Origin: a virus
Strand: one strand, 5' to 3'
Length of the DNA stretch: 64,000 bases
IMG/VR virus record: IMGVR_UViG_3300021400_000026
How positions within the stretch are numbered: the first letter of the stretch is position 1; the number at the start of each line of letters is the position of its first letter. The notes beneath the pieces are model-generated. The model was not told the origin of the DNA. It made no database searches and worked only from the letters and a program-made list of their open reading frames with translations. This document shows, piece by piece, positions 21,444 to 53,771 of this stretch. The position numbers and the translations under genes were made by a program.

Positions 21444-21500
21444 ATTATTAATCTATCTTAAATTATTGCTTGCATTAGTACAACTTGGCAGAAAAAGCCG

Positions 21501-21635: not shown

Positions 21636-21716
21636 CAAACTTAAAATGAAACCAGTATAATTCTGGTGGATTTATGGTGTATTTTTAATATAATTTAAGA
21701 GAATTGTGGTGTAATT

Positions 21717-22388: not shown

Positions 22389-22579
22389 ACATTATAATAT
22401 ATATAATAGCATTAACCGTGATAATAGTGGTGAAACTCTCCAATGTTTCCCCACACCAATACCATGAAGCACGGTTAACCTATTATAATATAACCACTTA
22501 CGTCGAATCTTGCATAATCCCAAACGGATCACTTTTAGACGTGGCGGGGTTATGCCGAAAATCGCGGCATCCGCCTTAA
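22385..22579 (+). CDS. small hydrophobic protein (uncertain)
   Basis: The ATG overlaps the regulator stop (ATGA). The N-terminus IIIYIIALTVIIVV is a transmembrane segment. The sequence is AT-rich. Confidence 0.3.
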   Translation: MNIIIYIIALTVIIVVKLSNVSPHQYHEARLTYYNITTYVESCIIPNGSLLDVAGLCRKSRHPP

Positions 22580-22721
22580 ATAAAGGGATTAACGCTTAAA
22601 TTGGGAGATTATGAAGAAATGCAAAATTGGCGCAAATCGGGACAAAAATGATGGATTGTTTCCCCATTGTTACCCCAGTGGCAAAACAGGTGGGGAAACA
22701 TTTCCAGGAAGTGGGGAAACA
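22444..22721. repeat. four copies of GTGGGGAAACA (two direct, two inverted) upstream of int
   Basis: Inverted copies lie at 22444-22454 and 22657-22666 (the latter is a 10-mer). Direct copies lie at 22690-22700 and 22711-22721. Confidence 0.7.
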
Positions 22722-22766
22722 GTATGACCAGGCTGAAGCGCATGAAACTAAAAAAACAAAAAATCT

Positions 22767-24002
22767 ATGAGCATAACAAAAGTAACAAGTGCAATCGTAT
22801 GGGACCATCGGGGGCGTGTCGCCGAGGGTGGCAAGGGCCAGGTGGAGATCCGTGTGACGGTGGCCAGAAAGTCGTACCATTTCGGCACTGGTGTGAAGTG
22901 CTACAAGAACGAATTGGTGGCAGGGCAACTGTTAGACTGCCCTGGTAAGGATGAACTAAACCGCAAGATTGGAATCATATATAACAAGGTACTCGCGCTT
23001 GTGAATGCGTGCGTGGACGCGGGCGAACCTATTAATACCGAAGAGATACGGCGGCAGGTGTGGCAGACGGTGGAGGCGCAGTCGGACGAGCCTGTGTTCA
23101 TGGACTGGCTGGCGGAGCAGGTGCCGGAGCTGGGCGTGTCTGAGGGTACACGGAAGCACTATGACCCGCTGCTGGTACGGCTGGAGGCTTTCGGGCGGAT
23201 GAAGCGGTGGCAGGATGTGACCGTCGAGAATATCGCCAACTTCGATGCGTGGTTGCATTGTATCACAAAGCCTTTGAGCGATGCCAGGCGCAAAGCTGGT
23301 GCCAAGCCTGAAAAGCTGAGCGATGCCGCTATTTATAACTACCACAAGTGTCTGAAGGCTCTGCTCAACCGTGCGCTGTCGTTTGGAAAGATTGACGCAA
23401 ACCCTTATGACCGCCTGAAGGGGAAGTTCAAGCGAGGTGAAAAAGAAAACGTGGAATATCTCACTGAGGAAGAAATGAAACGTTTCGAGGCTATCATACT
23501 GCCGAAAGGTTCAGAACTTGATGTCGTGCATGATCTCTTCATCTTCCAGATGTTCACGGGTCTGCCTTACTCTGATATGCAGGCCTTCGACGTATCAGAT
23601 TATAAATGGGATGGCAAAGCATGGAAGCATGTCGGCGAACGCATAAAGACTGGTGTGCCGTATGTTTCACAACTTCTCCCTCCGGCGGTGAAGATTCTCG
23701 AAAAGTATGGTTGGGAAATCCCGCAGTTATCCAATGCCGACTATAACCGCCACTTGAAGGCACTCGGACAGATGGCTGGTATCAAGACACGGCTTCACTC
23801 ACACCTCGCCCGTCACACCTTCGCCACCTACATGCTGCGCAATGGGGTGAAGATCGAAAATGTCTCGAAGATGCTCGGACACACGAATATCACGCAGACG
23901 CAACGCTATGCGAAGGTGCTGGCGGAGTCGGTGCATGAGGACTTCGACATGATAGCAGAGAAGCTCGAAACGAAGAAACGGAAAAGAATGTCTAACCCTT
24001 AA
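22767..24002 (+). CDS. int: tyrosine recombinase / phage integrase
   Basis: The C-terminal catalytic region HLARHTFATYMLRNGVKIENVSKMLGHTNITQTQRYAKV fits the R..HxxR..Y signature. The N-terminus resembles a Bacteroidetes-type SAM-like domain. Confidence 0.95.
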   Translation: MSITKVTSAIVWDHRGRVAEGGKGQVEIRVTVARKSYHFGTGVKCYKNELVAGQLLDCPGKDELNRKIGIIYNKVLALVNACVDAGEPINTEEIRRQVWQTVEAQSDEPVFMDWLAEQVPELGVSEGTRKHYDPLLVRLEAFGRMKRWQDVTVENIANFDAWLHCITKPLSDARRKAGAKPEKLSDAAIYNYHKCLKALLNRALSFGKIDANPYDRLKGKFKRGEKENVEYLTEEEMKRFEAIILPKGSELDVVHDLFIFQMFTGLPYSDMQAFDVSDYKWDGKAWKHVGERIKTGVPYVSQLLPPAVKILEKYGWEIPQLSNADYNRHLKALGQMAGIKTRLHSHLARHTFATYMLRNGVKIENVSKMLGHTNITQTQRYAKVLAESVHEDFDMIAEKLETKKRKRMSNP

Positions 24003-24014
24003 AATATAAAAGCT

Positions 24015-24584
24015 ATGACACTATTTTTATTTGCACTGTTGGCCGTCTGTATCCTTGTGGCTTTTGCCGTGTTCAGTCATGGAAACAGTAAAACCGTCAA
24101 AGAGAATGTTAATCAAGATGAGGAATTGATTGCAAATGCCGTCGGATTCCTAACCAAAGCGGAAGCACTTCGGCAGGCTGAAGTTGCAGGGAATGAACTC
24201 GTGAGGGGTGCAATACTCAGCAATACCTACACGGGTCCATGGCCTGAGCGTCGTGCTGATGGCGGTTATCTAAGTATCTTCGATAACCTCCGCATCCTGA
24301 AGGTGGCTGGCATGAATTTCAGGCATGGCATGAATCGTTACAAAGGCTTTATCGATGCAGCTCTGGTGCCAGAACCGAAAAACGAGTACGATAAGAATGC
24401 CATCAAGGTAGTTTCTATCGACGGACACCACCTTGGTTATGTACCAACCGAACAGACCGACTTCGTGCGCTCGCTCACTGCCAATGAATTTCCGTACAAA
24501 TGCAAATGCGAGGTCTGTGAAGGTTTTGATGATGACGATGAAAAGTGTTACTTTGGCTACGTCTACATCAAGCGGCTCGACTGA
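24015..24584 (+). CDS. membrane-anchored HIRAN-domain protein
   Basis: An N-terminal transmembrane segment is followed by LKVAGMNFRHG..FIDAALVPEPKNEYDKNAIKVVSIDGHHLGYVPTEQTDFV, which follows the HIRAN pattern (rEP.NpyD.nAi.V....g..iGYvp). Confidence 0.65.
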   Translation: MTLFLFALLAVCILVAFAVFSHGNSKTVKENVNQDEELIANAVGFLTKAEALRQAEVAGNELVRGAILSNTYTGPWPERRADGGYLSIFDNLRILKVAGMNFRHGMNRYKGFIDAALVPEPKNEYDKNAIKVVSIDGHHLGYVPTEQTDFVRSLTANEFPYKCKCEVCEGFDDDDEKCYFGYVYIKRLD

Positions 24585-24650
24585 AAAGGACAAAGGGGAG
24601 TGCTGTGTGCTCCCCTCCCTTAAATATAAACTATTTAAAACAAAACGACT

Positions 24651-25565
24651 ATGAAAAAAGTGTTTAACCTGTCGCACCGCGACAAACTCGTTGTGAATCT
24701 CTTGCTGGGCGTGATTGCCCTCAGTCTCTTAAACCTCTGCCTTTCGTCGTGCAACCGCACTGACGGCGAAGAAAATGCTACAGCCAAAGTGAATGTCGCA
24801 TGGGCTGACACGCTCGAAAAGAAAACCGTCACCTTCGACTTCACAGGCTTGCGGGCAAAGACTCGCGCCACGCTGACGGAGCTCACGATGACAGACCTCT
24901 GGATTTTTGACTACATGGGCGATGTCTTCCAGCAATCCGTCCACCAAGCGAGCACAGATGCCACCTTCGGTTCTCCGTCGCTCTCGCTCGATTATGGCGA
25001 ACACACCTTCTACTTCGTCGCCTCTCGCGGATCTGATCCCGTCGTTGATACCGATGCAAAGACTATCACATGGGGCAGTGTGCGTGATACGTTTCATGGC
25101 TCCCTGTCGCTCAATGTTCAACCCAATTCAGGCAGCAGCCAGCCTGTGTCGCTCTCGCGCTGCGTCGGTCGTCTGCGAGTCAGTGCGACTGATGTCGTTC
25201 CAGATGGGGCTGCAAAGCTCGTGGTGTCACCTTCCTCATGGTATTATGGCCTGAATTATCAGTCGGGCGAATGTGTGGCCGATTCGCCGACACCTTTGGT
25301 CGTCAATATCCCCAGCAGCTATATCGGTACCACGAAACTCGCCGCCTCGTTCTATACCATCAGCAGCGCGTCACCCTGGCAGACGGATATGACCGTTGCG
25401 CTCGTGGCCACAGACGAGAGCACCATCGGCAGCGTGACCATCTCTGACATGCCGATACAGCGTAACCATGTCACCTCCTACGCTGGTGGCATCGTCGGTG
25501 CTGGTCGCACGCTGAATCTTGGCAGTGATGATGAGTGGGTGGAGGACGAGACCGTCAACTGGTAA
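24651..25565 (+). CDS. lipoprotein, Mfa2/FimB-type fimbrillin-like
   Basis: Signal peptide with lipobox (LCLSSC). The beta-rich body (TVTFDFTG..LTELTMTDLWIFDY..HTFYFVASRG) resembles Bacteroidetes fimbrillin-family proteins. Confidence 0.5.
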   Translation: MKKVFNLSHRDKLVVNLLLGVIALSLLNLCLSSCNRTDGEENATAKVNVAWADTLEKKTVTFDFTGLRAKTRATLTELTMTDLWIFDYMGDVFQQSVHQASTDATFGSPSLSLDYGEHTFYFVASRGSDPVVDTDAKTITWGSVRDTFHGSLSLNVQPNSGSSQPVSLSRCVGRLRVSATDVVPDGAAKLVVSPSSWYYGLNYQSGECVADSPTPLVVNIPSSYIGTTKLAASFYTISSASPWQTDMTVALVATDESTIGSVTISDMPIQRNHVTSYAGGIVGAGRTLNLGSDDEWVEDETVNW

Positions 25566-43766: not shown

Positions 43767-43825
43767 AAACTTACCTACCTTTCTTTGTTGCTCTTAGTAG
43801 GGTATCTTTCGGAAGAATCCCTATA
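43767..43825 (-). repeat. inverted copy of the 4266..4325 element
   Basis: See feature 4266..4325. Confidence 0.6.
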
Positions 43826-43890
43826 TTCTTGTCGGAGAATAACTATGTTCTTGTCAGAGAATAACTATGTTCTTGCCAGAGAATAACTAT
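43825..43890 (-). repeat. three tandem 22-bp repeats abutting the portal stop codon
   Basis: Plus-strand units are ATTCTTGTCGGAGAATAACTAT, GTTCTTGTCAGAGAATAACTAT and GTTCTTGCCAGAGAATAACTAT, at 43825, 43847 and 43869. Confidence 0.8.
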
Positions 43891-45302
43891 CAACTTTCCT
43901 CGCCCTCCTTTGGTGGTTCCTGCACGGTGTAACTGCCCGGCTTCAATTCCGTTGCGCCCTCGCTCTTGGCGATGAGAGCCTTCAGCGTCATCAGGTTGGC
44001 ACTGGCCAGCGGCTCGTCGCCGTTCTCCACTGCCGGGCGGTCGTACTGCTGTCTGATCTCGTTGATGGTCGAAGCACCCGTCTGGAGCATAATCTGGTCA
44101 ACCTTCGCCTGAGCCTCCTTGTCAAGCCGCATGAGTGGCTGTTCGCACATGTGGAACCGTCGCATTCCGAAGTCGTACTGGTTCAGCAGCTTGGAGTTGA
44201 ACTCCTGCTCAATCTCCGTGATGTCGGGCTGAATGGTCCATTGCAGCAACTCCATTCGTGCGTTCTGATAGGTCGTGTAATGCGAGTTGGTATCTTCCAT
44301 CAGCAGCGGACGTTGAACACCGTAATACCTACAAACGTCGTTGATACCCATTCCTAACACCTCAATCATCTGCTGGTCTTGTGCCGACATGCTGATGTTG
44401 TGGAGGGCAGACAGTCCACGGATGCCCACCACGTCCTGCTGGTACATCTTCGTGTTCAGTTCCTTGGCGTAGGAGTCAATCTGTTCCTTGTTCAACAGTC
44501 CGAATGACAGCGTACCGGCACCCTGCGCCGGCTTCTCCTCACCGATGATGAGTTTCACGCGTCCGCCCTTCGCAGCCGTTTCCAGTGCCTGGTTCGTTTC
44601 CGTCTTGATGAGCGAGAGCGTGTCAAAGGCATAGTGAAGCGTGGAGATACCCCAGCCGTTGGTCATCTTGTAGGTGTTGGGGATGTGGATCACGTCCGAT
44701 GCTTCCACTGCATCAATATTCATGATGCCCCGGCGGGTGTAGTATTGCACACGATATGTGCCGTTGGCTTCATTGTAGCCGGCACCGAAGCAGAGCCACA
44801 ATGCCACGGGCCATCCCCGGTCGTCGCGCTCGATGTAGGCGATGCCGTTGCCGTTCTGGAGTTTCGAGATGACCAGCCCCTGCATGAAGGCCGAAGCCGT
44901 CATCATCGGGTTCGGACGGACTTGCAGCAGGTAGTTCAACTGCTGCCCATAGGTGACATACTGACTGCACACGGCTCCCACTTCAGGAACGAAATTACCG
45001 CCCTTTTTGTCGAGTTTCTGATACTGGAGCATAAACTGCCCCTCCGTCTTGGCTATCAACCCGACGGCACGATAGACGGCGGGAACGGTCAGTGCTGCCT
45101 GTGGCGTCAGCACATGGCGGATGTGCGACTGGAACGAGCCGCTTTCGCCCGTAGCCTTGCTGCTGGTGGTTTCCGGCTCAGCCACATTCGTCTGGTCAGT
45201 GGTCTCGCGTACAGCCATTAACGGCATGTCGTCCACCGCCTCGCGCTGAAAACTATTGAATCTTGAAAAATTGCTCATATACGTCTTTTTCAAATCGGTC
45301 AT
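43890..45302 (-). CDS. portal protein, HK97 family
   Basis: 470 aa. ..VRPNPMMTASAFMQGLVISKLQNGNGIAYIERD fits the Phage_portal pattern. Confidence 0.85.
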   Translation of the reverse strand: MTDLKKTYMSNFSRFNSFQREAVDDMPLMAVRETTDQTNVAEPETTSSKATGESGSFQSHIRHVLTPQAALTVPAVYRAVGLIAKTEGQFMLQYQKLDKKGGNFVPEVGAVCSQYVTYGQQLNYLLQVRPNPMMTASAFMQGLVISKLQNGNGIAYIERDDRGWPVALWLCFGAGYNEANGTYRVQYYTRRGIMNIDAVEASDVIHIPNTYKMTNGWGISTLHYAFDTLSLIKTETNQALETAAKGGRVKLIIGEEKPAQGAGTLSFGLLNKEQIDSYAKELNTKMYQQDVVGIRGLSALHNISMSAQDQQMIEVLGMGINDVCRYYGVQRPLLMEDTNSHYTTYQNARMELLQWTIQPDITEIEQEFNSKLLNQYDFGMRRFHMCEQPLMRLDKEAQAKVDQIMLQTGASTINEIRQQYDRPAVENGDEPLASANLMTLKALIAKSEGATELKPGSYTVQEPPKEGEES

Positions 45303-45354
45303 TTTGCCGTTATGGGTTTACCCGTCGGCACGGAGCCGACGGGCACACGATGGA

Positions 45355-45699
45355 CTACACGTCGATGCTCTCGGCAAACTCATTGTAAGCCTTGAACTCG
45401 GCATATTCAGCTGAGTCATACTGCAACGTGGCCTTCAGCACCTTGGCCAGCGTCTTGCGCAGGATTTTGGTTTCGTCGCCGTCGGGGTGAATCTCGCTGA
45501 TGACGGAATCCTTTACCTTGTGCGGGTCGCGGGCGTCGGGCACCTGATAGATGTCGTACTGATACTCAGTGCGCTCTTCCTGTGTCTCAGGGTCGGTCAC
45601 CTTGACCTCGCGCTCGTTGGTGAACACCTCACCGCTGTTGTCACCGGTGAGCTTGTGCAGGCCGAGTGCCTGCTTCTCAGGGAAATTAGCTGTGTACAT
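45355..45699 (-). CDS. hypothetical acidic protein
   Basis: ORF-track ORF between the RT and the portal gene. Confidence 0.55.
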   Translation of the reverse strand: MYTANFPEKQALGLHKLTGDNSGEVFTNEREVKVTDPETQEERTEYQYDIYQVPDARDPHKVKDSVISEIHPDGDETKILRKTLAKVLKATLQYDSAEYAEFKAYNEFAESIDV

Positions 45700-45707
45700 A
45701 ATCGTTG

Positions 45708-47045
45708 TTATTTAGGGATATTGAATTGTTTGCGAATCATTTCCTCTTCCTCGGCGTCGGTATATACCGTGCCGTCGTAATAAAAACCGCTCCAGTCGTG
45801 TACTATCTTCATGTCGCGCATGGGAATGTCATTCCGTGTCTTCGTGTCGAGATACTTGCATATCTTCTGTGCGCCCGTCGAATAGACTATCAGTCCCAGC
45901 CCGTCAGCAAGTGCCTGAATGTGGTAGTAACTGTCGCAGTCCTTCTGGTTGCTGCTGCGCTTCTGGAAGTCAACGATGGTGTGGGGGATGCCCTCCATCG
46001 TCTCAATCTTCATGGGTCGCCCGGCAAAGGGGCGACGGATTTTCTCGCTCATAGTTCTGTTGTCTTGATATTGTACTCGTTTCTTCAGTTCCTTCGTGTC
46101 GGCTACTTCGATGATGCCCTTGTACGAGCCCATGCTGCGCTCACGATGACGAGCCTTCACGTATCGTTTCTTAGTGTCTTGTGTCAGGTGGACAAAACCG
46201 CGCCCGTACTGGTAGCCGCAGAAGATGATGGGCTGATACTCTTTGCCAGGCTTAGCCTCGATGGGGCGCACATACATCGGCTTGTAGTGCAGTCGCATCT
46301 GTCTTGCCCATATTCGCATGTCGCGGCGCAGATTCTCCAGTGTCTTCTTGTCGCGGCTGAAGGCGATGAAATCGTCGGCAAAATTGACTACCTTGATACG
46401 ATCGCCATATTTCTCTTTAGCCTTGCGGATGATGACGCTCATGTTCAGGTTGGCGATGAGGTGCGAGAAGGGGTCACCGATGGCGAGCCGCTTCTGGTTG
46501 AACAGATGCTGACGGATCACCGCCCTTGTGCGCTTATCCTTCACCTGTCGCTCTATCAACTTCATGCTGATTACGTTATCAACGTTGTCATAGAACTTGG
46601 AGATGTCGCCTTGCAGATAGTGCGTCAGGCTTCGGTCATTCAGCAGCACTCGCATTCGTGCCACTACCTGGTGTCGCTTGTCTCTGGCGAGTACGCCGCA
46701 GCCGGGCAGACCGCCCAGCATGTCATCGGTCATCTGTCGCAGGATGAGCGGCTCGATGGCATCCTTCACAGCATTCTGCACACAGCGGTCTTCATAGGGC
46801 AGTACGCTGATGTCGCGTTCCTTCTTCTTGTCGCGCAGGCGGAAGTGGCGGTAGGGGCCAACGGCATAGGAGCCGTCACGCAGTTCAGCCTGCTTGCGCT
46901 GGCAGAAACCGTCCACGTCACGCATCACGCGGCGCACCTCGCGTTTCTTGCGCTGCTGTGCGGTCTTGGCCATGTATGCGTCGTTGGTTGCGGCATAGAG
47001 GCCGTTGACAGTGTTGTGCCATGTACTGATGCTCATACTCTTCAT
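45708..47045 (-). CDS. reverse transcriptase of a diversity-generating retroelement
   Basis: RT motifs: RDISVLPYEDRCVQNAV (1-2), YLQGDISKFYDNVD (3/A), LAIGDPFSHLIANL (4/B, a variant of the DGR-type IGxxxSQ) and VVNFADDFIAF (5/C, the YxDD box). The gene lies about 200 nt downstream of the TR. Confidence 0.9.
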   Translation of the reverse strand: MKSMSISTWHNTVNGLYAATNDAYMAKTAQQRKKREVRRVMRDVDGFCQRKQAELRDGSYAVGPYRHFRLRDKKKERDISVLPYEDRCVQNAVKDAIEPLILRQMTDDMLGGLPGCGVLARDKRHQVVARMRVLLNDRSLTHYLQGDISKFYDNVDNVISMKLIERQVKDKRTRAVIRQHLFNQKRLAIGDPFSHLIANLNMSVIIRKAKEKYGDRIKVVNFADDFIAFSRDKKTLENLRRDMRIWARQMRLHYKPMYVRPIEAKPGKEYQPIIFCGYQYGRGFVHLTQDTKKRYVKARHRERSMGSYKGIIEVADTKELKKRVQYQDNRTMSEKIRRPFAGRPMKIETMEGIPHTIVDFQKRSSNQKDCDSYYHIQALADGLGLIVYSTGAQKICKYLDTKTRNDIPMRDMKIVHDWSGFYYDGTVYTDAEEEEMIRKQFNIPK

Positions 47046-47246
47046 TTGTTTGTTCTTGACCTGCTGCGCCGATTGTCACTTTTGACTATGTGACAGCCTA
47101 CCCTTTCCTTTGCTATTGCTTGCACGGTCGGCTGGTGGTCTTGGCACCTTTTCTTTGCGTTGTTTCGCTCTCCATCGTCAGCGAGGCTCTGCACCTGCCT
47201 CTTTGGTTGCAGGTCACAACCGCGAGGGCTTATTGGTTTTGTTTGC

Positions 47247-47363
47247 GTATCAGTTGCCGAAGCCGATGTTCGTGTTCGCGTTCGAGGGCGAGTTGTTAGC
47301 GTTCATCGTCAACGGAGACAGGTTCGTGTTGTTAGCGTTGTTGCCGCGGCGAAAACCACGAAC
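47247..47363 (-). repeat. DGR template repeat (TR)
   Basis: 117 nt with 100/117 identity to 47755-47871. On the coding strand it reads as an AAC-rich, untranslatable segment (..GNNANNTNLSPLTMNANNSPSNANTNIGFGN*). Confidence 0.9.
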
Positions 47364-47534
47364 CGACGGATCAGTGCAGCCGCCTTATCATTCTGTGAAA
47401 GAACTCAACCTCACCACCTGACGGGTACTCCGATTCCCTTGTGCGCTTTGGTCGGTGGCCTGGATTTCTGCATCAACGATGTCGCACCACATCTCCACAC
47501 TATGCTGTCGATTCCTCGTATTGGGTTTACCAGA

Positions 47535-47576
47535 CAAAAAAACCGAGGCCACCCCACCATCGGGATGACCTCGGTT
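47535..47576 (-). terminator. intrinsic terminator between VR and TR
   Basis: Minus strand reads AACCGAGG-N20-CCTCGGTT followed by TTTTT. Confidence 0.65.
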
Positions 47577-47742
47577 TCTGAATTTTCCACCCGCGACCTC
47601 CTTGAGGCGGTATCTTCACCCCTCCTTTCAGTCTGGGCCGCGCTGTCGCGCGGGTTTTCGTTTTCGGCCCTCACTACGTTCGGGCGGTTTACGTTTTCTT
47701 TTTCGGACGGGTCACTCACTTCGCTCGTGACGGACGTTTACG

Positions 47743-50118
47743 TTAGCGAAGGCTGCAGCAGGTGCCGAAGCCGATGTACGTGCCCGCGTTCGAGGGCGAG
47801 GTGCTAGCGCCCATCGTCAACGGAGACAGGGACGTGAGGTTAGCGCAGGTGCCGCGGCGAAAACCACGAACACCCTTCTTACCTGCTGGTGCTGCGCCGC
47901 CCGTGAACCAATTGTACTTACCCACGTAGGTATGCAGACCTGCGCCGGTCTTCAGGTCGTTGGTACGAGGCAGCATGAATGCACCGTCGAGATAGTCGCG
48001 GGCGCAGCCTTCGCCTGCTGCCACCTCCAGCACCATTGGGTAGCGATCTTCGAAATCAAAGGTGCTCTCTACATTGATGTCTCCTCTGACTGTCTTGAGC
48101 AGTTCGGCCTGGTTGCGCTCTAAGAAGCAGCGGTAGTTGCGGTTCTCATCCTCGGTCATCACCAGTCCGCTGACCCACCACGATGGCGACACTTGGGTGG
48201 TAACGCCGTGGAGCAGAGCCGTGGAGAAGATGAAGTCGATACGCTTGCCAGTGAGATGCGTAGAACCGTCGGCGGGATCGATGGCGGCATTGGTGAACTG
48301 AGAAGAGAGTACCTTCCACACCACGCAGGTCATCTCGCCCTGGCCGGGGCCACGGAAGCCGGGCACGGAGCGATACTTGTACTTGTTGCCCTCGAAGACA
48401 AACCACTCCAGCTCTCCCACTCCCTTGCGCACGGCATACGACACAGCCCTGTGAGCCTCCATCACGTGCCACGGATTGCGCCAAGAGTTGACCATCGCGC
48501 CCGTATATTGATCGGTGATGCCGAAGGCATTGTTGACGTTGAGATTCAGATACACGAGGTTATCCTGTCCGTTGACGTAGCGCAGGCCGTTGCGGGCTTC
48601 CGAGCCGGCTGCCTCAAACACGGCGGCGTTGGCTCCATCGTTGCTCGAGAATCCGCTGCCCATGAGCGCGGCATTGTGGGCATTGAAGGTGCCACCCTCC
48701 GCGAGCAGCAGAGCCTGGAGGTTGTTGCATGCCTCCGCCGTCTGGTTCATGAATGGCACGGTCTTGGTGGTATCGGGGTTCATGTTCATCGCCCGCTGCT
48801 CGCCGTCTGGCAGGCTGAGGTCAGTGGTATGCAGACCACCTGCGCCGCCCAGTAGGGTGGCCTCCGAGTCGTATTCCTCGGTGATGGCTCCAGTTTCCTC
48901 GTTCTGATGGTAGATATACTTTCCGACCATCGCCACGGGGGCTGTATATGAGCCGTTCCAGGTCGGATTGTAAACTGAGTGCATGCGAGTCACGTTGTCG
49001 GTGTCCTGATGTGCCACGCAGTAGTCGGGTGACATGCCGCCACGGTCTATCTCCTCGGCATCGTAGCCGTGCCATGTGAACGGCTCGCGTGACATGAGGA
49101 ACACGTCGTACTCCTGCCCCTCCACGGTGAAGTGGCCTGCCAGACGGTAGTACTTCTCGATGTTGCAAACCATCACGTCGCCCTCCGAGCCGTCGATGGC
49201 GTGCTGATTGTTTGCGATGTCGAGGGCATGGCCTGTGCCGTCCTCGTAGCCCAGCTTCTGTAGGACGAAAAGAACCTTGCCAATCTGGTCGTCGTTGCCA
49301 GAAAGCTTTGTGCCTACCAGACAGGGGTAGAAGATCGAGAATGCCGATTCGCGGCTGAAGCCTCCCTCCTCGTTGAACTTGTAGTGACGGTAGCTCAGCG
49401 CGGGCGATGACGAGCCGGCCACGCGCACGTATCCCTCAGCCAGCGTCTCGATGTCGGCCACCACGGACTGAAGAGCGGAGATGGCATCGGCATTGGCTTT
49501 CTCAGCAGTTTCTGCGCGGGTCTTCTCGGCAGCCACGGCATTGCTGATAGCCGTGTTCATCTGCGTGGTGGTGCTATAAGACGTAAGGGCTTGGGCAATG
49601 GCGACATTCATCTGTGCTGTCGTCGAGTACGAAGTCAGTGCGGTGGCGATGGCGGATGATACCTGTGCGGCGGTCTGTTTCTGTGCCAGCAGGTTGTCCA
49701 CTTGCGTCTTGTTATAGTATGACTCCAATGCCGTGCTGATAGCCGTCGAAATCTGCGTGGATAGGTTCGCGGCCGTGGGCAGCGCGTCGAGCTTAGTCTT
49801 CAGCGCAGAAGTGAAGTCTTCGGTGGAGAGCTGCTTGCCGCTCACCTTGTCCACCTTGTTCGCCAGAAGATTGTCAGTGGCGGTCTTGGTGTAGTAGGCT
49901 GTCAGTGCGCTGGTGATGGCCGTACTGATGGCGGCGTTCATCTGCTCGGTAGTAGAATAGGGTTCAAGCGCGGTGTTGATGAGCGTCTGCACCTGCTCGG
50001 AGTTTACGAATGCCTCGATAGCCTCCTGGATGGCGGCGATGGCTTCGGCATGCTGCGGCACGAGGTTCAGTCGCTGCTGCACCTGTTCGCCGGTAAGGGT
50101 CAAATCGAAATCTGCCAT
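47743..50118 (-). CDS. DGR target protein: fibre-like protein with C-terminal variable region
   Basis: 791 aa. The N-terminus carries coiled-coil heptad-like repeats (TALTSYSTTAQMN..). The last roughly 40 codons are the VR, and the C-terminal pattern ..GFRRG......IGFG.. is typical of DGR C-type-lectin-fold targets. Confidence 0.85.
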   Translation of the reverse strand: MADFDLTLTGEQVQQRLNLVPQHAEAIAAIQEAIEAFVNSEQVQTLINTALEPYSTTEQMNAAISTAITSALTAYYTKTATDNLLANKVDKVSGKQLSTEDFTSALKTKLDALPTAANLSTQISTAISTALESYYNKTQVDNLLAQKQTAAQVSSAIATALTSYSTTAQMNVAIAQALTSYSTTTQMNTAISNAVAAEKTRAETAEKANADAISALQSVVADIETLAEGYVRVAGSSSPALSYRHYKFNEEGGFSRESAFSIFYPCLVGTKLSGNDDQIGKVLFVLQKLGYEDGTGHALDIANNQHAIDGSEGDVMVCNIEKYYRLAGHFTVEGQEYDVFLMSREPFTWHGYDAEEIDRGGMSPDYCVAHQDTDNVTRMHSVYNPTWNGSYTAPVAMVGKYIYHQNEETGAITEEYDSEATLLGGAGGLHTTDLSLPDGEQRAMNMNPDTTKTVPFMNQTAEACNNLQALLLAEGGTFNAHNAALMGSGFSSNDGANAAVFEAAGSEARNGLRYVNGQDNLVYLNLNVNNAFGITDQYTGAMVNSWRNPWHVMEAHRAVSYAVRKGVGELEWFVFEGNKYKYRSVPGFRGPGQGEMTCVVWKVLSSQFTNAAIDPADGSTHLTGKRIDFIFSTALLHGVTTQVSPSWWVSGLVMTEDENRNYRCFLERNQAELLKTVRGDINVESTFDFEDRYPMVLEVAAGEGCARDYLDGAFMLPRTNDLKTGAGLHTYVGKYNWFTGGAAPAGKKGVRGFRRGTCANLTSLSPLTMGASTSPSNAGTYIGFGTCCSLR
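47755..47871 (-). repeat. DGR variable repeat (VR)
   Basis: Ungapped alignment to the TR at an offset of 508 nt. All 17 mismatches lie opposite TR adenines on the coding strand. Confidence 0.9.
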
Positions 50119-50140
50119 AATTCTTATGATTTTTTAGTTA

Positions 50141-50632
50141 CTAATTATTTTTCAAAACACGGAGCCGGAGACCGTTTACGTCGCGGAAGTAGTTCTGGAA
50201 GATGTCGCGCAGATAGCGGAACAGACTTCGCTTATCGCTGCGGAGCGTGCGCTCATAGGACACGTAGATACCCTGATAGATACCACCCTCGTCGCGCATC
50301 ATCTGTGGCATCCTCGAACTGGTGTTCACGAAGCACAGCGGCTGCTGCTCCTTCTCTGTGCGGTAGCCGTCGGCATAGTCACCGTCGGGCACGTCGTAGG
50401 CACACTCCACCGTCACCACGCCAACCATGTCATTCGTCGGGAACGTAAAGAACCACTGGTCGGCCTCGTCTTTCATCATTTCCGACTTCTGTATCACGAG
50501 CGTCCGTCCCTGCATGCCCCATTTGAGGGTCACCGAAAACGGGTTCTCTGACATGGAGAATCCTTCTCGCTCGATGGCGATGCGGTACTTTGCCTTCTCG
50601 CCTTGCTGAATGATGTTCTTGCTGTTGATCAT
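50141..50632 (-). CDS. hypothetical virion-module protein
   Basis: ORF-track ORF of 163 aa. Confidence 0.55.
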   Translation of the reverse strand: MINSKNIIQQGEKAKYRIAIEREGFSMSENPFSVTLKWGMQGRTLVIQKSEMMKDEADQWFFTFPTNDMVGVVTVECAYDVPDGDYADGYRTEKEQQPLCFVNTSSRMPQMMRDEGGIYQGIYVSYERTLRSDKRSLFRYLRDIFQNYFRDVNGLRLRVLKNN

Positions 50633-50674
50633 ATCTAAGATACTTTATATTTCACTTGTTTTGCCGTATCGGGT

Positions 50675-50965
50675 TTACTGCGGTATCCGTTCTTCAGCTG
50701 GATAGACCCTGAGAGCCTTGTCGCTGCTGTCGCGGAGCGTCAGCAGGTTCACGTCGCGGAGCGTCAGCATGCCCGTCTGCTGCACGATGGTGACTTGTGC
50801 CGAAGCCCGTCCGTCTGCCGTCCGTAAGGTAATGACTTGCTGGCGGTCACTGCCCAGATTGTCGGTGGTAGAACGAACGGTAACGACTCCATCACCTTGT
50901 CCGTCGTATGTCAGGATGATGTCGCCGTTGCCGTCGGTCCAGGGGATGGTGAGTGTCTTTGCCAT
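50675..50965 (-). CDS. hypothetical beta-rich protein
   Basis: ORF-track ORF whose start shares one nucleotide with the upstream stop. Confidence 0.5.
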   Translation of the reverse strand: MAKTLTIPWTDGNGDIILTYDGQGDGVVTVRSTTDNLGSDRQQVITLRTADGRASAQVTIVQQTGMLTLRDVNLLTLRDSSDKALRVYPAEERIPQ

Positions 50966-51588
50966 TACTCTACGGTCCAGTTGGTGTTACTTGTCACGTT
51001 GAACGATGCCGTCTTGCCCTGTGTGGCTGCATCCCAGTCGAGGTTGACGGTGGCCGGATCTACCTCCAATGTCGCGTCACCAGCTGCCTGCGTGATGGTA
51101 CAGGTGGCGGAGTGTCCTGCCGCATCGGTCACGATGAGCTGTGCCGTGCGCTCAGTTACCACGGGATTCTTCGATATGCTGGCGAACTGAATGCTGAACG
51201 GGAACTCCTGCCCTGCTCCCGGGTCGCCTGCAATGGCCGCGCCGTTGTTCGTCTGTAGGGAGTTGGCCAGATAGGTGGCGGGAATTGTCAGCGGTAACGA
51301 ACCGCCGGAAGCGAGGGCGAAGGTCAGCTTCGATGAGTTACTGACGCCTTCGATAGTGAGTACCGTCACACCGTCCTTTGAGACGGCTGCTGCACTCTGA
51401 ATGGTTACAAACTCAGGCTTGCCAGCCTGAATGACCGTGCGCACCACGTCGGCCACGTTCGCTGCCTTGAAGGCAATCTGTGTCTGTCGTGGACTGCGCC
51501 CGGTGTTATTGCTCACGGCGGTCACATCTACGGTGTCATTGCCTGAGCCTGATGTCTTGCTTGGTAAAAGCCAATTTGCGTATGCCAT
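50965..51588 (-). CDS. Ig-like / BACON-like repeat protein
   Basis: ..SGSGNDTVDVTAVSNNTGRSPRQTQIAFKA and ..LEVDPATVNLDWDAATQGKTASFNVTSNTNWTV resemble BACON-type Ig modules. Confidence 0.45.
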   Translation of the reverse strand: MAYANWLLPSKTSGSGNDTVDVTAVSNNTGRSPRQTQIAFKAANVADVVRTVIQAGKPEFVTIQSAAAVSKDGVTVLTIEGVSNSSKLTFALASGGSLPLTIPATYLANSLQTNNGAAIAGDPGAGQEFPFSIQFASISKNPVVTERTAQLIVTDAAGHSATCTITQAAGDATLEVDPATVNLDWDAATQGKTASFNVTSNTNWTVE

Positions 51589-51607
51589 ATCTTTGTGGTT
51601 TTAATGA

Positions 51608-51853
51608 TTATTCGATTCGCCAGTCAAGCGTTGTTATTATCTCGTACCGCACCACATTGCCAGGCGTGACCCACTGAAGCGTCTGCGCCTTCTCGGGTGT
51701 GACCCTGATTGGCTTGTAGAGATTGCGACGCTCATCAAGTTGCGCGTTGACATAAATGCCGTTCGGTACGCTCCACGTTCGCGGATGTGCCTGGCATGTC
51801 AGCAGCCTAATGCCGCTATGAACTGAACCTGTGATGAGTCTTGCGCTGTTCAT
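51608..51853 (-). CDS. hypothetical small protein
   Basis: ORF-track ORF overlapping the upstream stop. Confidence 0.5.
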   Translation of the reverse strand: MNSARLITGSVHSGIRLLTCQAHPRTWSVPNGIYVNAQLDERRNLYKPIRVTPEKAQTLQWVTPGNVVRYEIITTLDWRIE

Positions 51854-52479
51854 CCTCGAATGGTGATGTGTGGGTTAATGCGAACAACTGACTTGCGGAA
51901 CCCGCTGGGGAAGTCTTTATCTGGAATCTGGAACGTCACCTTTACCATGAGCGTGCCAATGCCATAGTCGTCGGTGTTGATGATAACCACGTAGTCGCCT
52001 TCGTCGGTCAGTATGCACTCCGTCTTCTTGAACGTCTTCCTCTTGTCCTTGGCGTCGGCATTGACCACTTCCACGGTGAAGTCCACATCTTGCATGGTGA
52101 GGTCGTCCGGCAGTTCCGACGTGATGAGTATCTTCTCTTGCGAGCCGAGCGTGACGGTCTGCTGCCTAATCCCGCAAGGCTCAGAAGTCAGCCGCATGTA
52201 CGGCTTGATGAGCATGTCGAAAGCGTAAGGCACACTACTCAGGTTCTGAGCCGACGAAGGCTCACGGTGCTGGTACGATTGTCCCACCAGCAGCATAGCG
52301 GCCTGAACCAGCGGGGCCGGCACTTCGCCGTAACTTTCCAGCAGATCATGGTAGTTGCGGTTCAGCAGGTTCAGCAAGGTGTCCTCTGCGGCCTTGCCAT
52401 ACTCGTCGAGTAAGGTGTCCTCTTCGCTCCAGTCTATACGAAGCTGCTGCTTGATGTAATCCAATGTGAGAAATTTCAT
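51850..52479 (-). CDS. gp6-like head-tail connector protein with C-terminal extension
   Basis: Trimmed to MKFLTLDYIKQQLRIDWSEEDTLLDEYGKAAEDTLLNLLNR..APLVQAAMLLVGQSYQHRE, which follows the Phage_connect_1 pattern. Confidence 0.65.
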   Translation of the reverse strand: MKFLTLDYIKQQLRIDWSEEDTLLDEYGKAAEDTLLNLLNRNYHDLLESYGEVPAPLVQAAMLLVGQSYQHREPSSAQNLSSVPYAFDMLIKPYMRLTSEPCGIRQQTVTLGSQEKILITSELPDDLTMQDVDFTVEVVNADAKDKRKTFKKTECILTDEGDYVVIINTDDYGIGTLMVKVTFQIPDKDFPSGFRKSVVRINPHITIRG

Positions 52480-52552
52480 ATTTCTGCCTTTTTTACTTAG
52501 CGGCAGAAATACGTCTTGGGGTTTACCGCCTGCCGACAACTGGGGCAAGCGC

Positions 52553-52578
52553 AAAAAAATGGGCGACCGCTGTCGCCC
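52553..52578 (-). terminator. intrinsic terminator after the endolysin gene
   Basis: GGGCGAC-AGCG-GTCGCCC followed by ATTTTTTT on the minus strand. Confidence 0.7.
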
Positions 52579-52663
52579 TACACTCTTTTACTAAATGAAT
52601 AACTAACTACTAAAACAATTAATGATTTTATGAAAAAACTACTGACTTTTGCCCGTCGCGGGT

Positions 52664-53107
52664 TTATCGTTTTAAAAGATTGTCGATAACTTGTCTGCGG
52701 TTTCGCCCATAAGGTGGAGCGACATACGAGACGTGAATCCAGTACGTGCCGTTGCGGTCGTGCTCCCAGATGAGTTGGTCGAAGTTCAAATGCGTCTTGA
52801 TCCAGTCAAACCACTTGCGGCCTTTCTTCATATCGCCGTCGATGCAAAGGTCTGCCGCCTGCCCTTTCGTGTGCTGACTGTTCGAGACACCGCCAACGGC
52901 TCTGTTCAGCCGCTCGCAACGGTAGCCGCTGCTGATCCTGATGGGCTCGTTCATCGCCTCGCGGAGCGGTTCAAGCACGTAGGCAGCGAGATACACCAGA
53001 CAGATGATTTGCTGTACGTTCGGTTTGTTGTCAATTCCCTTCGCCTTGGCGGTCGCGCTGGCGTAGAGCTCTTCAATCGTAAAGTGCATGGTTACGGGTG
53101 TGGACAT
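52664..53107 (-). CDS. endolysin, Peptidase_M15 (D-Ala-D-Ala carboxypeptidase-like) family
   Basis: FTIEELYAS....KGIDN.P.......L......LEPLREAMNEPIRISSGYRCERLNRAVGGVSNSQHTKGQAADL is the M15_3/M15_4 zinc-peptidase signature (SxHxxGxAxD). Confidence 0.85.
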   Translation of the reverse strand: MSTPVTMHFTIEELYASATAKAKGIDNKPNVQQIICLVYLAAYVLEPLREAMNEPIRISSGYRCERLNRAVGGVSNSQHTKGQAADLCIDGDMKKGRKWFDWIKTHLNFDQLIWEHDRNGTYWIHVSYVAPPYGRNRRQVIDNLLKR

Positions 53108-53160: not shown

Positions 53161-53706
53161 CTAAATCTCATTATCAGGCTCGATGTCATGCTGCTTCGCC
53201 TCTGGGCGGATGGTGTTCTCAATCTCCCCGCTTGGCGAGATGGTTACGGGTACACGGATGGCGCAGCCGTTCCGTCCACACAGGAAAGGGCGCATAAAGG
53301 CAACCATTCGGCTGTTACGTGCCACCTCGAACTGCAAGTCCCTCATCGCCTTCTCCAGCTTGTCCTGACGTTTGCGCAGGTCGTCACGCTCCTGGCGTAA
53401 GTGTTGGCGGTCTTCTTTCAGCTCGGCGATGTACTGCTTCTGCTCGTCGTTGTACTGCTGTTGCGTTTCGAGGTTCGCCTTCAGGTCGGCTGTCAGCTGC
53501 TGATAACTGTCCTGAATCTCCTTTGTCAACTGGGCGTTGGCCTGCATCGCCTCGAACTTTGCCTTTTCCGCCTCGGCTTCTGCTGCCTTGGCTTCCGACT
53601 TGGCCTTCTTTCGCTGGTATCTCCATGTGAAGAATGCCCCGCCACCGCCACCCAGTAGAAGGGTCACGATAGCAATGATGTTGTCGATAGATAGGATGTC
53701 TGTCAT
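53161..53706 (-). CDS. type-II membrane coiled-coil protein (holin/spanin-region candidate)
   Basis: Trimmed to MTDILSIDN. A transmembrane segment (IIAIVTLLLGGGGGAFFTW) is followed by a long coiled coil. The gene lies directly upstream of the endolysin. Confidence 0.4.
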   Translation of the reverse strand: MTDILSIDNIIAIVTLLLGGGGGAFFTWRYQRKKAKSEAKAAEAEAEKAKFEAMQANAQLTKEIQDSYQQLTADLKANLETQQQYNDEQKQYIAELKEDRQHLRQERDDLRKRQDKLEKAMRDLQFEVARNSRMVAFMRPFLCGRNGCAIRVPVTISPSGEIENTIRPEAKQHDIEPDNEI

Positions 53707-53771
53707 TTCTTGATGATTTATAAACTTACAAATCATGAGAAACGACGCTATGGGTTTACTCTGTGCTTTTC

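Follow-up and report, generated by a model that had tools for sequence, protein, structure and literature searches.

How does a phage gene come to carry a C-terminus that is different in each of its relatives? The question is raised by a 791-aa protein encoded in IMG/VR virus record IMGVR_UViG_3300021400_000026, of which a stretch of 64,000 nucleotides (here called the window) was analysed. The answer is very probably a diversity-generating retroelement (DGR) of the Avd-less "target-TR-RT" architecture, borne by a phage of rumen or gut Bacteroidales (Table 1). An earlier note on this DNA had called the element complete. Both open reading frames that it described were recovered, and target gene, template repeat (TR), and reverse transcriptase (RT) are all present, but "complete" needs a qualifier because Avd is undetectable; neither Avd, HRDC, nor any other known accessory protein was found at the DGR. 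The description of the carrier as a temperate, Bacteroidales-type phage is borne out by an integrase and by the occurrence of relatives in Bacteroidales, Prevotella, and rumen MAGs.

Table 1. Features of the DGR locus (positions are those of the window)
Feature	Position	Strand	Remarks
orf114, acidic conserved protein, 114 aa	45355..45699	(-)	start 8 nt past RT stop codon
RT, 445 aa	45708..47045	(-)	RT core aa 1 to ~327; extra C-terminal domain aa 330-445
DGR RNA, 3' part	47058..47246	(-)	counterpart of BPP-1 spacer (Sp)
Further covarying hairpins	47166-47183, 47134-47148, 47111-47125, 47075-47094	(-)	
Invariant sequence AGCCGACCG	47125-47133	(-)	in DGR RNA 3' part
Stem-loop past TR	47197-47231	(-)	
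TR	47247..47363	(-)	12 AAC codons; 31 adenines, 27 in mutable zone; non-coding in context
TR-bracketing helix	5' strand 47373-47385; 3' strand 47184-47195	(-)	
DGR RNA, 5' part	47373..47468	(-)	hairpin P1 and 5' strand of TR-bracketing helix
Hairpin P1	47451-47459 with 47413-47422	(-)	loop GAATCGGAGTA
Intrinsic terminator-like hairpin and T-run	47536..47577	(-)	between hairpin array and DGR RNA
Three-module array	47632..47745	(-)	directly past target stop codon
Array module, (A)AACG(T/A)AAAC plus GC-rich hairpin	hairpins 47711-47731, 47665-47686, 47638-47653	(-)	
Target gene, 791 aa	47743..50118	(-)	helical repeat-rich stalk, beta-rich body, VR at extreme C-terminus
Variable repeat (VR)	47755..47871	(-)	last 39 codons of target gene

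The TR and VR, offset by 508 nt, form a gapless alignment with an identity of 100/117, and their homology stops sharply at both ends. Each of the 17 mismatches falls on a coding-strand adenine of the TR (17 of its 31 adenines); for 117 positions that include 31 A's, the hypergeometric probability of 17/17 mismatches at A is 2.2e-12. A search of the window with the A-masked TR hits the TR and VR and nothing else, while shuffles lead one to expect 0 matches. This agrees with what had been claimed, down to the coordinates, the listed mismatch positions, the translations of both repeats, and the abrupt ends, and realignment revealed neither indels nor non-A mismatches.

Are all 17 differences marks of mutagenesis, as the earlier note held? 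The 14 in the mutable zone can stand as such, but the three at the 3' end, at TR positions 47254, 47250, and 47248, are fixed boundary differences with no sign of ongoing mutagenesis. The corresponding target residues are Thr786, Cys787, and Cys788, which are nearly invariant among 119 homologues (entropies of 0.12, 0.07, and 0.36 bits). In relatives, TR and VR already differ at non-A bases past GGCA(A/C)CTG, and an automated repeat search also puts the end of the repeat at 47251. At its 3' end the VR has GGCACCTGCTGC (Gly-Thr-Cys-Cys), a fixed sequence with the behavior of an IMH-type boundary. The mutable zone therefore covers ~47255-47363, with 14 of its 27 adenines differing between TR and VR in the window copy, and the hypervariable part of the VR lies at ~47778-47849. 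The mutable adenines are spread over 11 AAC codons and 5 single-A codons, none of them placed where a change could give a stop codon, and would make about 10^15-10^16 tips possible on an invariant scaffold.

Could the pair instead have arisen by ordinary duplication of part of a gene, or by gene conversion, with no relation to the RT? Nothing but the existence of a direct repeat speaks for this, and it must contend with 17/17 mismatches at A (P, 2e-12), with an AAC-rich non-coding template directly upstream of a DGR-type RT, and with the same bias in 18 independent relatives. The cassette occurs in 18/18 relatives with enough upstream DNA, and the VR is different in each. Within these loci the TR/VR pairs differ at A only; between loci, TR and VR change together at non-A sites, while the VRs differ at A. 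Over 19 loci, mismatched sites number 345/556 at A versus 6/1672 at non-A. Ordinary duplication or gene conversion is effectively refuted by the A-only mismatches in the window copy and its relatives, and the interpretation as a DGR is upheld by the affinity of the RT and by an adenine-specific pattern in every relative with enough upstream sequence. At the protein level, the 11 AAC-templated residues have entropies of 3.05-3.41 bits among 119 target homologues, compared with near 0 at the scaffold, and protein clusters at 90% identity have 15 variable columns in the last 45 residues versus 5-10 in the other ~730-770. In this family, information passes from TR to VR with adenine specificity, and the templated residues are hypervariable.

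What about the enzyme? The RT matches Pfam RVT_1 and phrog_1423, and all its matches in the phage database fall on annotated RT genes (22-29% identity), including those of the known DGR carriers BPP-1 (brt) and Hankyphage (p00), as well as crAss-like phages and ANMV-1. An end-to-end alignment to bRT takes in aa 6-327 of the RT; in it, IGDPFSH lines up with IGSLTSQ of bRT, and NFADD, with the catalytic ADD conserved, lines up with YMDD. R77 and I189 are the counterparts of R74 and I181, which in bRT promote adenine mutagenesis (PMC7826257). Searched against the PDB, a profile of the RT family finds bRT (8ub7) with an E value of 7.7e-16 and 61 bits, while group II and retron-type RTs reach only 6e-8 or worse (~35 bits). 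Judged by its sequence, the RT resembles known DGR RTs most, Bordetella bRT included. Of the motifs reported earlier, IGDPFSH and NFADD are both present and are invariant among 68 RT homologues, but the box reads SH where the canonical DGR signature is SQ. The C-terminal domain, of ~115 aa, is conserved and rare (28 representatives among 1.84 billion proteins) and may take part in DGR function.

Is the copy in the window still at work? It might be decaying or already inactive, its VR diversified in the past and retrohoming since lost; the identical target protein is found as a single sequence on a single contig, SH replaces SQ in the RT, and there is no Avd. We regard this as distinctly improbable. 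SH and NFADD are invariant family-wide, in members that all show fresh, differing VRs, and a Q187P change in bRT retains mutagenesis (PMC7826257). Decay would add non-A mismatches, of which the window copy has 0, and the RT, orf114, TR, and flanking RNA are intact and under strong constraint (at least 68 RT homologues and 24 RNA loci). The window's own DGR is probably active at present.

To what kind of protein does the variable tip belong? The AF2 model and secondary structure give the target a helical, repeat-rich N-terminal stalk (aa 1 to ~223) and a beta-rich body. It has more than 1000 homologues, all of them lacking a Pfam domain that would explain the protein. Foldseek searches against BFVD match it to a "receptor binding complex" protein (E, 4.5e-24) and to crAss-like tail or tail-fibre proteins (E, 3e-5 to 3e-4), among which the 595-aa protein of cr6_1 has the same length as the tail protein beside the cr6_1 RT. 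The predicted fold of the target matches DGR-adjacent tail proteins of crAss-like phages. A C-type-lectin fold, which had been proposed as a check on the VR domain, was not borne out: the VR has a pLDDT of <50 in the model and gives no Pfam, PDB, or hhalign signal.

The earlier view of a fibre-like, receptor-binding protein is favored by the Foldseek matches and the helical, repeat-rich N-terminal 220 aa, but the gene is located away from the main tail module, and ~12-20 kb separate it from the tail genes. Flanking it are a gp6-like head-tail adaptor gene, genes for two BACON-domain proteins, and the portal gene, and lysis genes adjoin. This position, together with the lack of a fold match for the VR domain, would suit a head or neck fibre, a decoration protein, or an adhesin for environmental glycans or mucus, with the DGR tuning adherence and not host range. 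Such a role seems to us rather unlikely, given the pairing of the body with receptor-binding and crAss-like tail proteins. Moreover, the position of the cassette shifts relative to the portal and adaptor genes among relatives, and the neighbors therefore tell little about target function. The target is more probably a tail-fibre-like protein with a receptor-binding function, and diversification of the VR presumably alters which ligand or host receptor the virion recognizes.

The TR lies within a structured RNA whose pairs covary, as derived from an alignment of 24 loci. Its 50 pairs are paired in 98.3% of cells, compared with 28-39% in slid controls, and compensatory changes occur at 16 pairs, those of the TR-bracketing helix included, compared with 0-4; none of 500 shuffles reached the observed covariation. 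P1 has compensatory changes at 5 pairs, and its loop motif is found in 20 family loci but not at the BPP-1, Hankyphage, BT-TP2, or cr6_1 loci. An Rfam search gave no match to the RNA. Single-sequence folding energies are no better than those of shuffles for the RNA (z, +0.44) or for the hairpin array between VR and TR (z, -0.68), and support for the structure therefore comes from covariation and conservation alone. The limits of the RNA and its priming site are placed provisionally, by analogy with BPP-1; the same analogy underlies the roles suggested here for the hairpins, orf114, and the RT C-terminal domain, the receptor-binding function, and the probable activity of the window copy.

In the array, the third hairpin reads CCGCGC-GACA-GCGCGG, with a GRNA-type loop. 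VR-TR spacers totalling 6.2 kb contain the motif CGWAAAC 41 times, compared with 46 times in 457 kb elsewhere, and within the window AAACGWAAAC is confined to the array. In 32/33 distinct array units the hairpin is more stable than its own shuffles, while the stems vary among units. BPP-1 retrohoming requires a comparable hairpin/cruciform (PMC3240598), and the array hairpins may have a similar role. The terminator-like hairpin is missing in relatives with short spacers.

A small gene, orf114, directly follows the RT in 25/25 loci while other neighbors change. Its product has 25 invariant residues and 239 homologues, all of ~112 aa and without Pfam domains; the AF2 model (pLDDT, 87; 4 strands and 3 helices) has no significant fold match in the PDB. 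Is it part of the DGR? Tail-fibre chaperone genes often come after fibre genes. Accordingly, orf114 might be a fibre chaperone or assembly protein, or simply a travelling phage gene, with the RT (including its C-terminal domain) and the RNA sufficing. Its acidic pI of 4.68, unlike the 9.55 of the nucleic-acid-binding bAvd, and the lack of similarity to Avd or any known fold fit such a role, to which we give slightly less than an even chance. Yet orf114 keeps its place with an 8-nt gap despite varying neighbors, and its family matches the RT family in size (239 versus 267). In Avd-less Bacteroides DGRs this position is taken by acidic small CH1 proteins (pI 4.7), which have been proposed as DGR components (PMC5758913), and the ORF after the Hankyphage RT encodes 161 aa with a pI of 4.69. 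The protein is a candidate either for a cassette component in the CH1 position or for a fibre chaperone, and a role in the DGR is plausible.

How might these parts work together? Transcription, beginning either at a separate start past the terminator or in the target gene with read-through, would yield an RNA of ~400 nt that holds the TR between conserved structured segments. Pairing of the segments just upstream and ~50 nt downstream of the TR would turn the TR into a closed loop, while the hairpins downstream of it might scaffold the RT. The RT would then copy the TR into cDNA, misincorporating opposite adenines, and the cDNA would take the place of its homologue, the VR at the 3' end of the tail-fibre-like gene; the GC-rich, fixed 3' boundary and the hairpin array past the stop codon would guide its integration.

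How does this system compare with known ones? With group II intron and retron RTs, the RT shares the fingers, palm, and thumb core. Its top NCBIfam match is a group II model, at 72 bits, far under the family cut-off of 300, and bRT as a control behaves likewise. The motif here, however, is I-G-x-x-x-S-H in place of QGxxxSP, an A-mutagenised repeat pair accompanies the RT, and an Rfam search found no intron or retron RNA. With the BPP-1 DGR (mtd-avd-TR-brt) it has in common adenine-specific transfer from the TR to a VR that forms the 3' end of a receptor-binding gene (here a probable one), an end-to-end alignable RT with R74 and I181 conserved, pairing between the RNA segments on the two sides of the TR (the "cPRT stop" duplex of the BPP-1 RNP parallels the TR-bracketing helix; bioRxiv 10.1101/2023.10.23.563531), and GC-rich hairpin(s) just past the VR, one with a GRNA loop. 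It differs in lacking Avd, which is essential in BPP-1, in the C-terminal domain that bRT is without, in having SH for SQ and FADD for YMDD, and in an array of 2-4 spacer-plus-hairpin modules in place of a single hairpin. The RNA upstream of the TR is supplied in BPP-1 by the end of avd but here by a dedicated non-coding element with a structure, and the target has no detectable similarity to Mtd or C-type lectins.

The nearest systems, likened by architecture, are the Avd-less Bacteroidetes and crAss-like DGRs (architecture A, target-TR-RT, or E, with CH1, lineage 3/3a, of Wu et al. 2018), with crAssphage LMMB and Hankyphage also near. The RT is merely 20-29% identical to theirs and no nearer to that of Hankyphage than to bRT, its C-terminal domain is a rare separate family, and orf114 has 114 aa versus 160-169 aa, with no detectable homology to DUF4376/CH1-type proteins. 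Shared are the target(VR)-TR-RT order on one strand without avd, a phage-borne element with a Bacteroidales host, a tail-fibre-type target, an RT C-terminal extension (as in ~20% of DGR RTs), and a small acidic ORF directly after the RT. Avd-less architecture, RT C-terminal extensions, and acidic CH1 genes have been described for Bacteroides-lineage DGRs (PMC5758913), and a crAss-like DGR without avd has the identical gene order (PMC7290462). Gene order (target-TR-RT), lack of Avd, and extension of the RT are each published for Bacteroidetes DGRs, and the system is therefore of a known type; it is not itself novel, but a well-supported fresh example of that type.

The window carries a genuine diversity-generating retroelement (DGR), of a kind already described for Bacteroidetes. 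A repeat search returned a single long direct repeat, 47251-47363 and 47759-47871, with a spacing of 508 nt; it falls within the template repeat (TR) and the variable repeat (VR). Recomputed on the coding strand, the two align without gaps and are identical at 100 of 117 positions. The realignment returned every one of the 17 differences that the earlier note had claimed to be adenine-only, and all of them are indeed at TR adenines, with no mismatch at any other base (there are 31 adenines in the TR; P = 2.2e-12 for all mismatches falling on A by chance). The translations, with their IGDPFSH and FADD boxes, were likewise reproduced from the ORFs. The VR makes up the last 39 codons of the target, and the TR includes 12 AAC codons. 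Thus, as in other DGRs, the VR sits at the 3' end of the target, and the template adenines lie in AAC-type codons that are unable to become stops. An adenine-masked TR pattern, used to search the window for further VRs, matched only the known TR and VR (shuffles expect 0).

Are all 17 of these differences products of mutagenesis? That they lie at adenines stands, but the last three (TR 47254, 47250, and 47248) are fixed, as the corresponding residues are near-invariant in relatives. At this 3' boundary, the VRs of all relatives read GGCACCTG(C/T)TG(C/T), encoding Gly-Thr-Cys-Cys, and their TRs read GGCAACTG.., GGCACATG.., or GGCAAATATTGT. Across 119 aligned target homologues, Thr786, Cys787, and Cys788 are nearly invariant. 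The mutable zone itself contains 27 adenines, 14 of which differ in the window copy. Its mismatches are all at codon position 1 or 2, the sole third-position mismatch being the fixed boundary difference at 47250. Judged from the sequences, the fixed TR/VR difference at the GC-rich 3' end is a putative boundary of the IMH/IMH* type; an IMH of the (GC)14 type is absent from the window locus.

Features of the DGR cassette and of its predicted RNA (window coordinates)
Feature	Position	Strand	Remarks
Target ORF, 791 aa	50118..47743	(-)	First in transcription order
Non-coding stretch	Between target and RT ORFs	(-)	Second in transcription order
P1, 5' hairpin	47451-47459 with 47413-47422	(-)	Loop GAATCGGAGTA; RNAalifold
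Bracketing helix	47373-47385 (just upstream of TR) with 47184-47195 (about 50 nt downstream)	(-)	RNAalifold
Several 3' hairpins	3' of TR	(-)	RNAalifold
RT ORF, 445 aa	47045..45708	(-)	Third in transcription order
orf114, 114 aa	45699..45355	(-)	Fourth in transcription order; start 8 nt past RT stop codon

The activity of the window copy we infer from its family, the evidence for diversification being at the level of relatives and not of reads of the window phage. The reverse transcriptase (RT) has 267 homologues, all of about 440 aa; the best 120 of the 267 are 70 to 94% identical. For comparison, 22 loci were fetched from IMG/VR and three from MAGs (Bacteroidales, Bacteroidaceae, and rumen). 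All 18 relatives with sufficient upstream DNA have a TR/VR pair of 102 to 121 nt in the same position, with 14 to 23 mismatches per pair, essentially all of them at TR adenines. Summed over 19 loci, mismatches occupy 345 of 556 A sites versus 6 of 1672 non-A sites. Non-A positions do vary between loci, but they vary jointly in TR and VR, which indicates that the template keeps overwriting the target. In the alignment of 119 target homologues, the 11 AAC-templated residues have entropies of 3.05 to 3.41 bits, while the scaffold between them (RGFRRG, LSPL, SPS, and IGFG) is near zero. Finally, within clusters of proteins at 90% identity, variable columns accumulate in the C-terminal 45 residues (for example, 15 there versus 5 in the other 768). 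Together, the A-only TR/VR pairs, the entropy pattern, and the variation within clusters argue that the family is an actively diversifying DGR. Its members are found in rumen and in Prevotella/Bacteroidales MAGs, in agreement with the earlier assignment to a Bacteroidales-type phage. Megablast with 43800-52600 as the query matched none of 50,697 phage records, so the element has no annotated close relative among those records. The source sequence is a 66.6-kb metagenomic scaffold (ENA ERZ28612966, SHIW14-1_SAMN02144230).

The RT matches Pfam RVT_1 and the PHROG "reverse transcriptase." By tblastn, it matches only annotated RT genes in the 50,697 phage records, at 22 to 29% identity, including those of the DGR carriers BPP-1 (brt) and Hankyphage p00 and those of crAss-like phages and ANMV-1. 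Its alignment with bRT, the RT of the Bordetella phage BPP-1 DGR, spans residues 6-327 and places IGDPFSH opposite IGSLTSQ and NFADD opposite YMDD. R77 and I189, both invariant in 68 homologues, correspond to bRT R74 and I181, which have been shown experimentally to promote adenine mutagenesis (PMC7826257). Relative to the DGR signature [I/V/L]GxxxSQ, the motif IGDPFSH keeps I, G, and S and replaces Q with H. It is invariant in the 68 homologues, and SH is also found in a 48%-identical RT. The bRT mutant Q187P retains adenine mutagenesis (PMC7826257), so the Q of SQ is not functionally essential.

Might the RT instead belong to a group II intron or a retron? The NCBIfam models for both do score on it, at 72 bits for the group II model TIGR04416 and 27 bits for the retron model, but the cut-offs are 300 and 235, respectively; bRT, run as a control, behaves alike with the first and is likewise far below the cut-off of the second. 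Rfam gave no match to an intron, msr/msd, or other RNA family in 45000-50500 at E values up to 1. The sub-cut-off scores and the absent RNA argue against both identities. When a profile of the RT family was compared with the PDB, the bRT cryo-EM entry 8ub7 matched at an E value of 7.7e-16, and group II and retron-type RTs matched at E values of at least 6e-8. Sequence comparison thus supports homology to the RTs of DGRs, with group II and retron RTs more distant. With adenine-only TR/VR pairs in the window and in 18 relatives as well, the DGR proposed in the earlier note is upheld.

Residues 330-445 of the RT form an extra domain that is strongly conserved in the 68 homologues and is also kept by the 48%-identical RT. 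It has 28 representatives in 1.84 billion proteins, mostly the C termini of RTs of 434 to 474 aa. An unrelated protein of 2460 aa contains 16 repeated stretches that match the end of this domain, ..MKIVHDWSGFYYDGTVYT.. (RT aa 398-432; window positions ~45750-45854), and a 1480-aa protein contains two. This suggests that the domain may include a widespread beta-hairpin repeat unit, which we take to be reminiscent of cell-wall or choline-binding repeats.

What about Avd, the accessory protein of BPP-1 (bAvd)? Pfam searches detected no bAvd-like (PF22296) or 23S_rRNA_IVP domain, either in ORFs beside the cassette or among the 74 + 32 ORFs of the window; bAvd itself, as a positive control, matched PF22296 at an E value of 7e-36. 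Neither an Avd nor an HRDC accessory was found at the window locus, and no Pfam domain matched any of the three small ORFs next to the cassette. The avd gene is frequent but not universal, being present in 74% of DGRs and missing from 26% (Wu et al. 2018, PMC5758913). An avd hidden in the VR-TR spacer was also considered. The 102-aa ORF 47411-47719 (-), with a GTG start, is conserved in relatives by tblastn; that conservation coincides with the hairpin array, the terminator, and the 5' RNA element described below and, on the sequence evidence, belongs to these nucleic acid elements rather than to a protein. The ORF has no Pfam or PHROG match and was rejected. In some relatives, the spacer measures only 184 to 264 nt, and a spacer down to 184 nt leaves no space for a gene.

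The protein that does accompany the RT is orf114, which follows it in 25 of 25 loci while the portal, adaptor, and endolysin genes shift around the cassette. It is conserved (239 homologues), lacks a Pfam domain, and is modeled by AF2 with a pLDDT of 87 as four strands and three helices. It is acidic, with a pI of 4.68 (family mean, 4.82) versus 9.55 for bAvd. The fold has no significant neighbor in the PDB, an hhalign comparison with bAvd gave a probability of 0.1%, and no significant similarity was found to Pfam, NCBIfam, PADLOC, or PDB sequences or to the DUF4376 proteins of Hankyphage (annotated as "Avd") and BT-TP2.

The RNA of the element is well resolved. When 24 loci were aligned over the stretch that begins some 100 nt before the TR and ends at the RT start, conservation proved very high outside the TR too. 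The predicted structure comprises 50 pairs, with 98.3% of cells paired versus 28 to 39% in controls with slid partners; compensatory pairs number 16 versus 0 to 4 in these controls, and 0 of 500 shuffles reached the observed covariation. The bracketing helix contributes 11 bp, two of them with compensatory change. A structured RNA around the TR, with a duplex of upstream and downstream segments, is therefore predicted here, as in the BPP-1 RNP. No Rfam family was found for the RNA elements, and thermodynamic z-scores of single sequences were not significant for the DGR RNA and the hairpin array. Because these energies are unexceptional, support for the RNA comes from covariation and conservation, not stability.

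Two further observations concern this region. The invariant spacer sequence AGCCGACCG (47125-47133, (-) strand) could pair with GGGTAGGCT, in an RNAalifold helix that lacks covariation. Alternatively, it could pair with the invariant TR 3' end, TTCGGC (47256-47262), which would resemble the TR:Sp template-primer duplex of BPP-1; since every position involved is invariant, the two pairings are indistinguishable. Past the terminator and ahead of the 5' RNA element come the motifs ATAGTGTGGAGATG and GGTAAACC (47490-47503 and ~47520-47530, (-) strand). Kept in loci with long spacers and absent from those with short spacers, they are candidates for a promoter or start signal from which the DGR RNA would be transcribed separately; relatives with short spacers may depend on transcription running through from the target gene. 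A sigma-70 promoter scan as a pointer to the RNA start was set aside as uninformative for Bacteroidetes.

Directly past the target stop codon, the loci carry an array of two to four modules, each consisting of (A)AACG(T/A)AAAC and a GC-rich hairpin. The module motif is about 65-fold enriched in VR-TR spacers, and within the window it occurs only here. Of the 33 distinct units, 32 fold better than their own shuffles, and the stems vary from unit to unit. The third hairpin of the window (47638-47653, CCGCGC-GACA-GCGCGG) has a GC stem and a GACA loop of the GRNA type. Target recognition in BPP-1 needs a hairpin with a GC stem and a GRNA loop (PMC3240598), and by this analogy the window hairpin would fit, its function here being putative. 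In loci with long spacers, a terminator-like hairpin (47536-47577 in the window) stands between the array and the DGR RNA.

What does the element diversify? The target has more than 1000 homologues, no Pfam domain, and no sequence-profile match in the PDB. Its AF2 model is of moderate quality (mean pLDDT, 64), with a helical N-terminal stalk and a beta-rich body. The VR region, residues 753-791, has a pLDDT below 50, too poor for comparison with the C-type lectin fold; so modeled, it has no Foldseek match in the PDB, and hhalign gave no match of the VR domain to Mtd, the BPP-1 target, or to the C terminus of the Hankyphage target. For the target as a whole, Foldseek against BFVD returned a "receptor binding complex" protein (E = 4.5e-24) and proteins of the crAss-like phages cr7_1, cr55_1 ("tail fiber"), cr6_1, and cr85_1 (E = 3e-5 to 3e-4). 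The first three of these phages also carry RTs matched by the window RT, and the cr6_1 match, at 595 aa, equals in length the product of the "tail protein" gene adjoining the cr6_1 RT. That gene (L028 148-1935) shows 11 in-frame stops under genetic code 11, consistent with stop-codon reassignment in cr6_1. These model-based matches support the earlier view of the target as a tail-fiber or receptor-binding protein. Its place in the virion is an inference, however, as the gene lies outside the main tail module, amid genes for an endolysin, a gp6-like adaptor, two BACON-domain proteins, and the portal. The two adjacent small BACON-similar proteins (50675-51588, (-) strand) are encoded just upstream of the target, after the adaptor; the 207-aa one matches at an E value of 2e-6 and the 96-aa one weakly (E = 0.009), and conservation of both is limited to the closest relatives. 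As BACON domains putatively bind glycans, the two proteins may decorate the virion or belong to the same fiber complex as the target.

The order of modules around the cassette is unusual for a tailed phage. The large terminase gene (8612-10654, (-) strand) lies about 33 kb from the portal gene (43890-45302, (-) strand), and the endolysin gene (52664-53107), a spanin-like gene (53161-53736), and the DGR cassette lie immediately upstream of the portal gene. A possible reason for this order is that a genome of about 66.6 kb is circularly permuted. A tRNA gene at 20262-20335 (-) scores 48.9 bits with Rfam and is given an odd 4-base anticodon, "tgca," by ARAGORN. Near it are genes for a tyrosine integrase (22767-24002, (+) strand) and an Mfa2 fimbrial anchor-like protein (24651-25565, (+) strand), and 20261-25565 may be an attachment and moron region. 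The integrase and tRNA region are consistent with the temperate lifestyle proposed earlier.

Why, then, is the element of interest? DGRs in Bacteroidales phages are well documented, and one more example changes little. What it offers is a clean, abundant natural family in which no Avd was detected, yet evidence of activity at the family level is strong, together with a covariation-supported RNA and two uncharacterized protein parts, the RT C-terminal domain and orf114. Such a family is a good comparative system for RNP assembly and target finding in Avd-less DGRs, and it may supply compact parts for the engineering of targeted mutagenesis. In ecological terms, it marks a hypervariable tail-fiber-like protein in rumen and gut phages of Prevotella/Bacteroidales. 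A tentative idea, which we consider rather doubtful, is that mutagenic retrohoming is here independent of Avd. The RT C-terminal domain, the linked acidic orf114 (a fold without known relatives), and the elaborate RNA (structured 5' element, bracketing helix, and 3' hairpins) would jointly replace the RNA-organizing role of the Avd pentamer, and the array, with its modules of AAACGTAAAC and a hairpin, would offer several sites for target recognition where BPP-1 has a single hairpin. Only if orf114, the domain, and the RNA prove to be such a solution would the importance be greater.

How does the element compare with known DGRs? It shares its one-strand target-TR-RT order without avd with architecture A/E and lineage 3/3a of Wu et al.; architecture A denotes the order target-TR-RT, avd is missing from lineage 3, and lineage 3a is confined to Bacteroides and relatives (PMC5758913). 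The crAssphage LMMB DGR has the identical avd-less gene order (PMC7290462). C-terminal extensions of up to about 150 aa occur in about 20% of DGR RTs, and the small acidic CH1 proteins (160 to 169 aa; pI 4.7) are found only in DGRs without Avd, HRDC, or MSL genes (PMC5758913). orf114 resembles CH1 in its position flanking the RT and in its acidity but has only 114 aa. In Hankyphage-type phages, the ORF after the RT encodes an acidic protein of 161 to 164 aa with a DUF4376 match. The "Avd"-annotated ORF of Hankyphage jmh72_hp (L027 6263-6748) is DUF4376 by Pfam, not Avd, as is its BT-TP2 counterpart (L029 6319-6813); both are acidic (pI 4.7 to 5.0) and fit the CH1 class rather than Avd. Upstream/downstream duplexes around the TR have been predicted in 207 Avd-containing DGRs (bioRxiv 10.1101/2023.10.23.563531), and the bracketing helix parallels the duplex of TR-upstream and -downstream segments in the BPP-1 RNP, the same principle appearing here in an element that lacks Avd and whose 5' domain is non-coding and dedicated. 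Features that seem unusual are thus published properties of Bacteroidetes DGRs (Wu et al. 2018; PMC7290462; Hankyphage-type loci). Specific to this family are (i) an RT that is very divergent, has SH where the signature has SQ, and carries a C-terminal domain of its own, (ii) a 114-aa protein in the CH1 position without detectable CH1/DUF4376 homology, (iii) a well-resolved RNA structure, and (iv) a multi-hairpin array after the VR, where BPP-1 has one hairpin.
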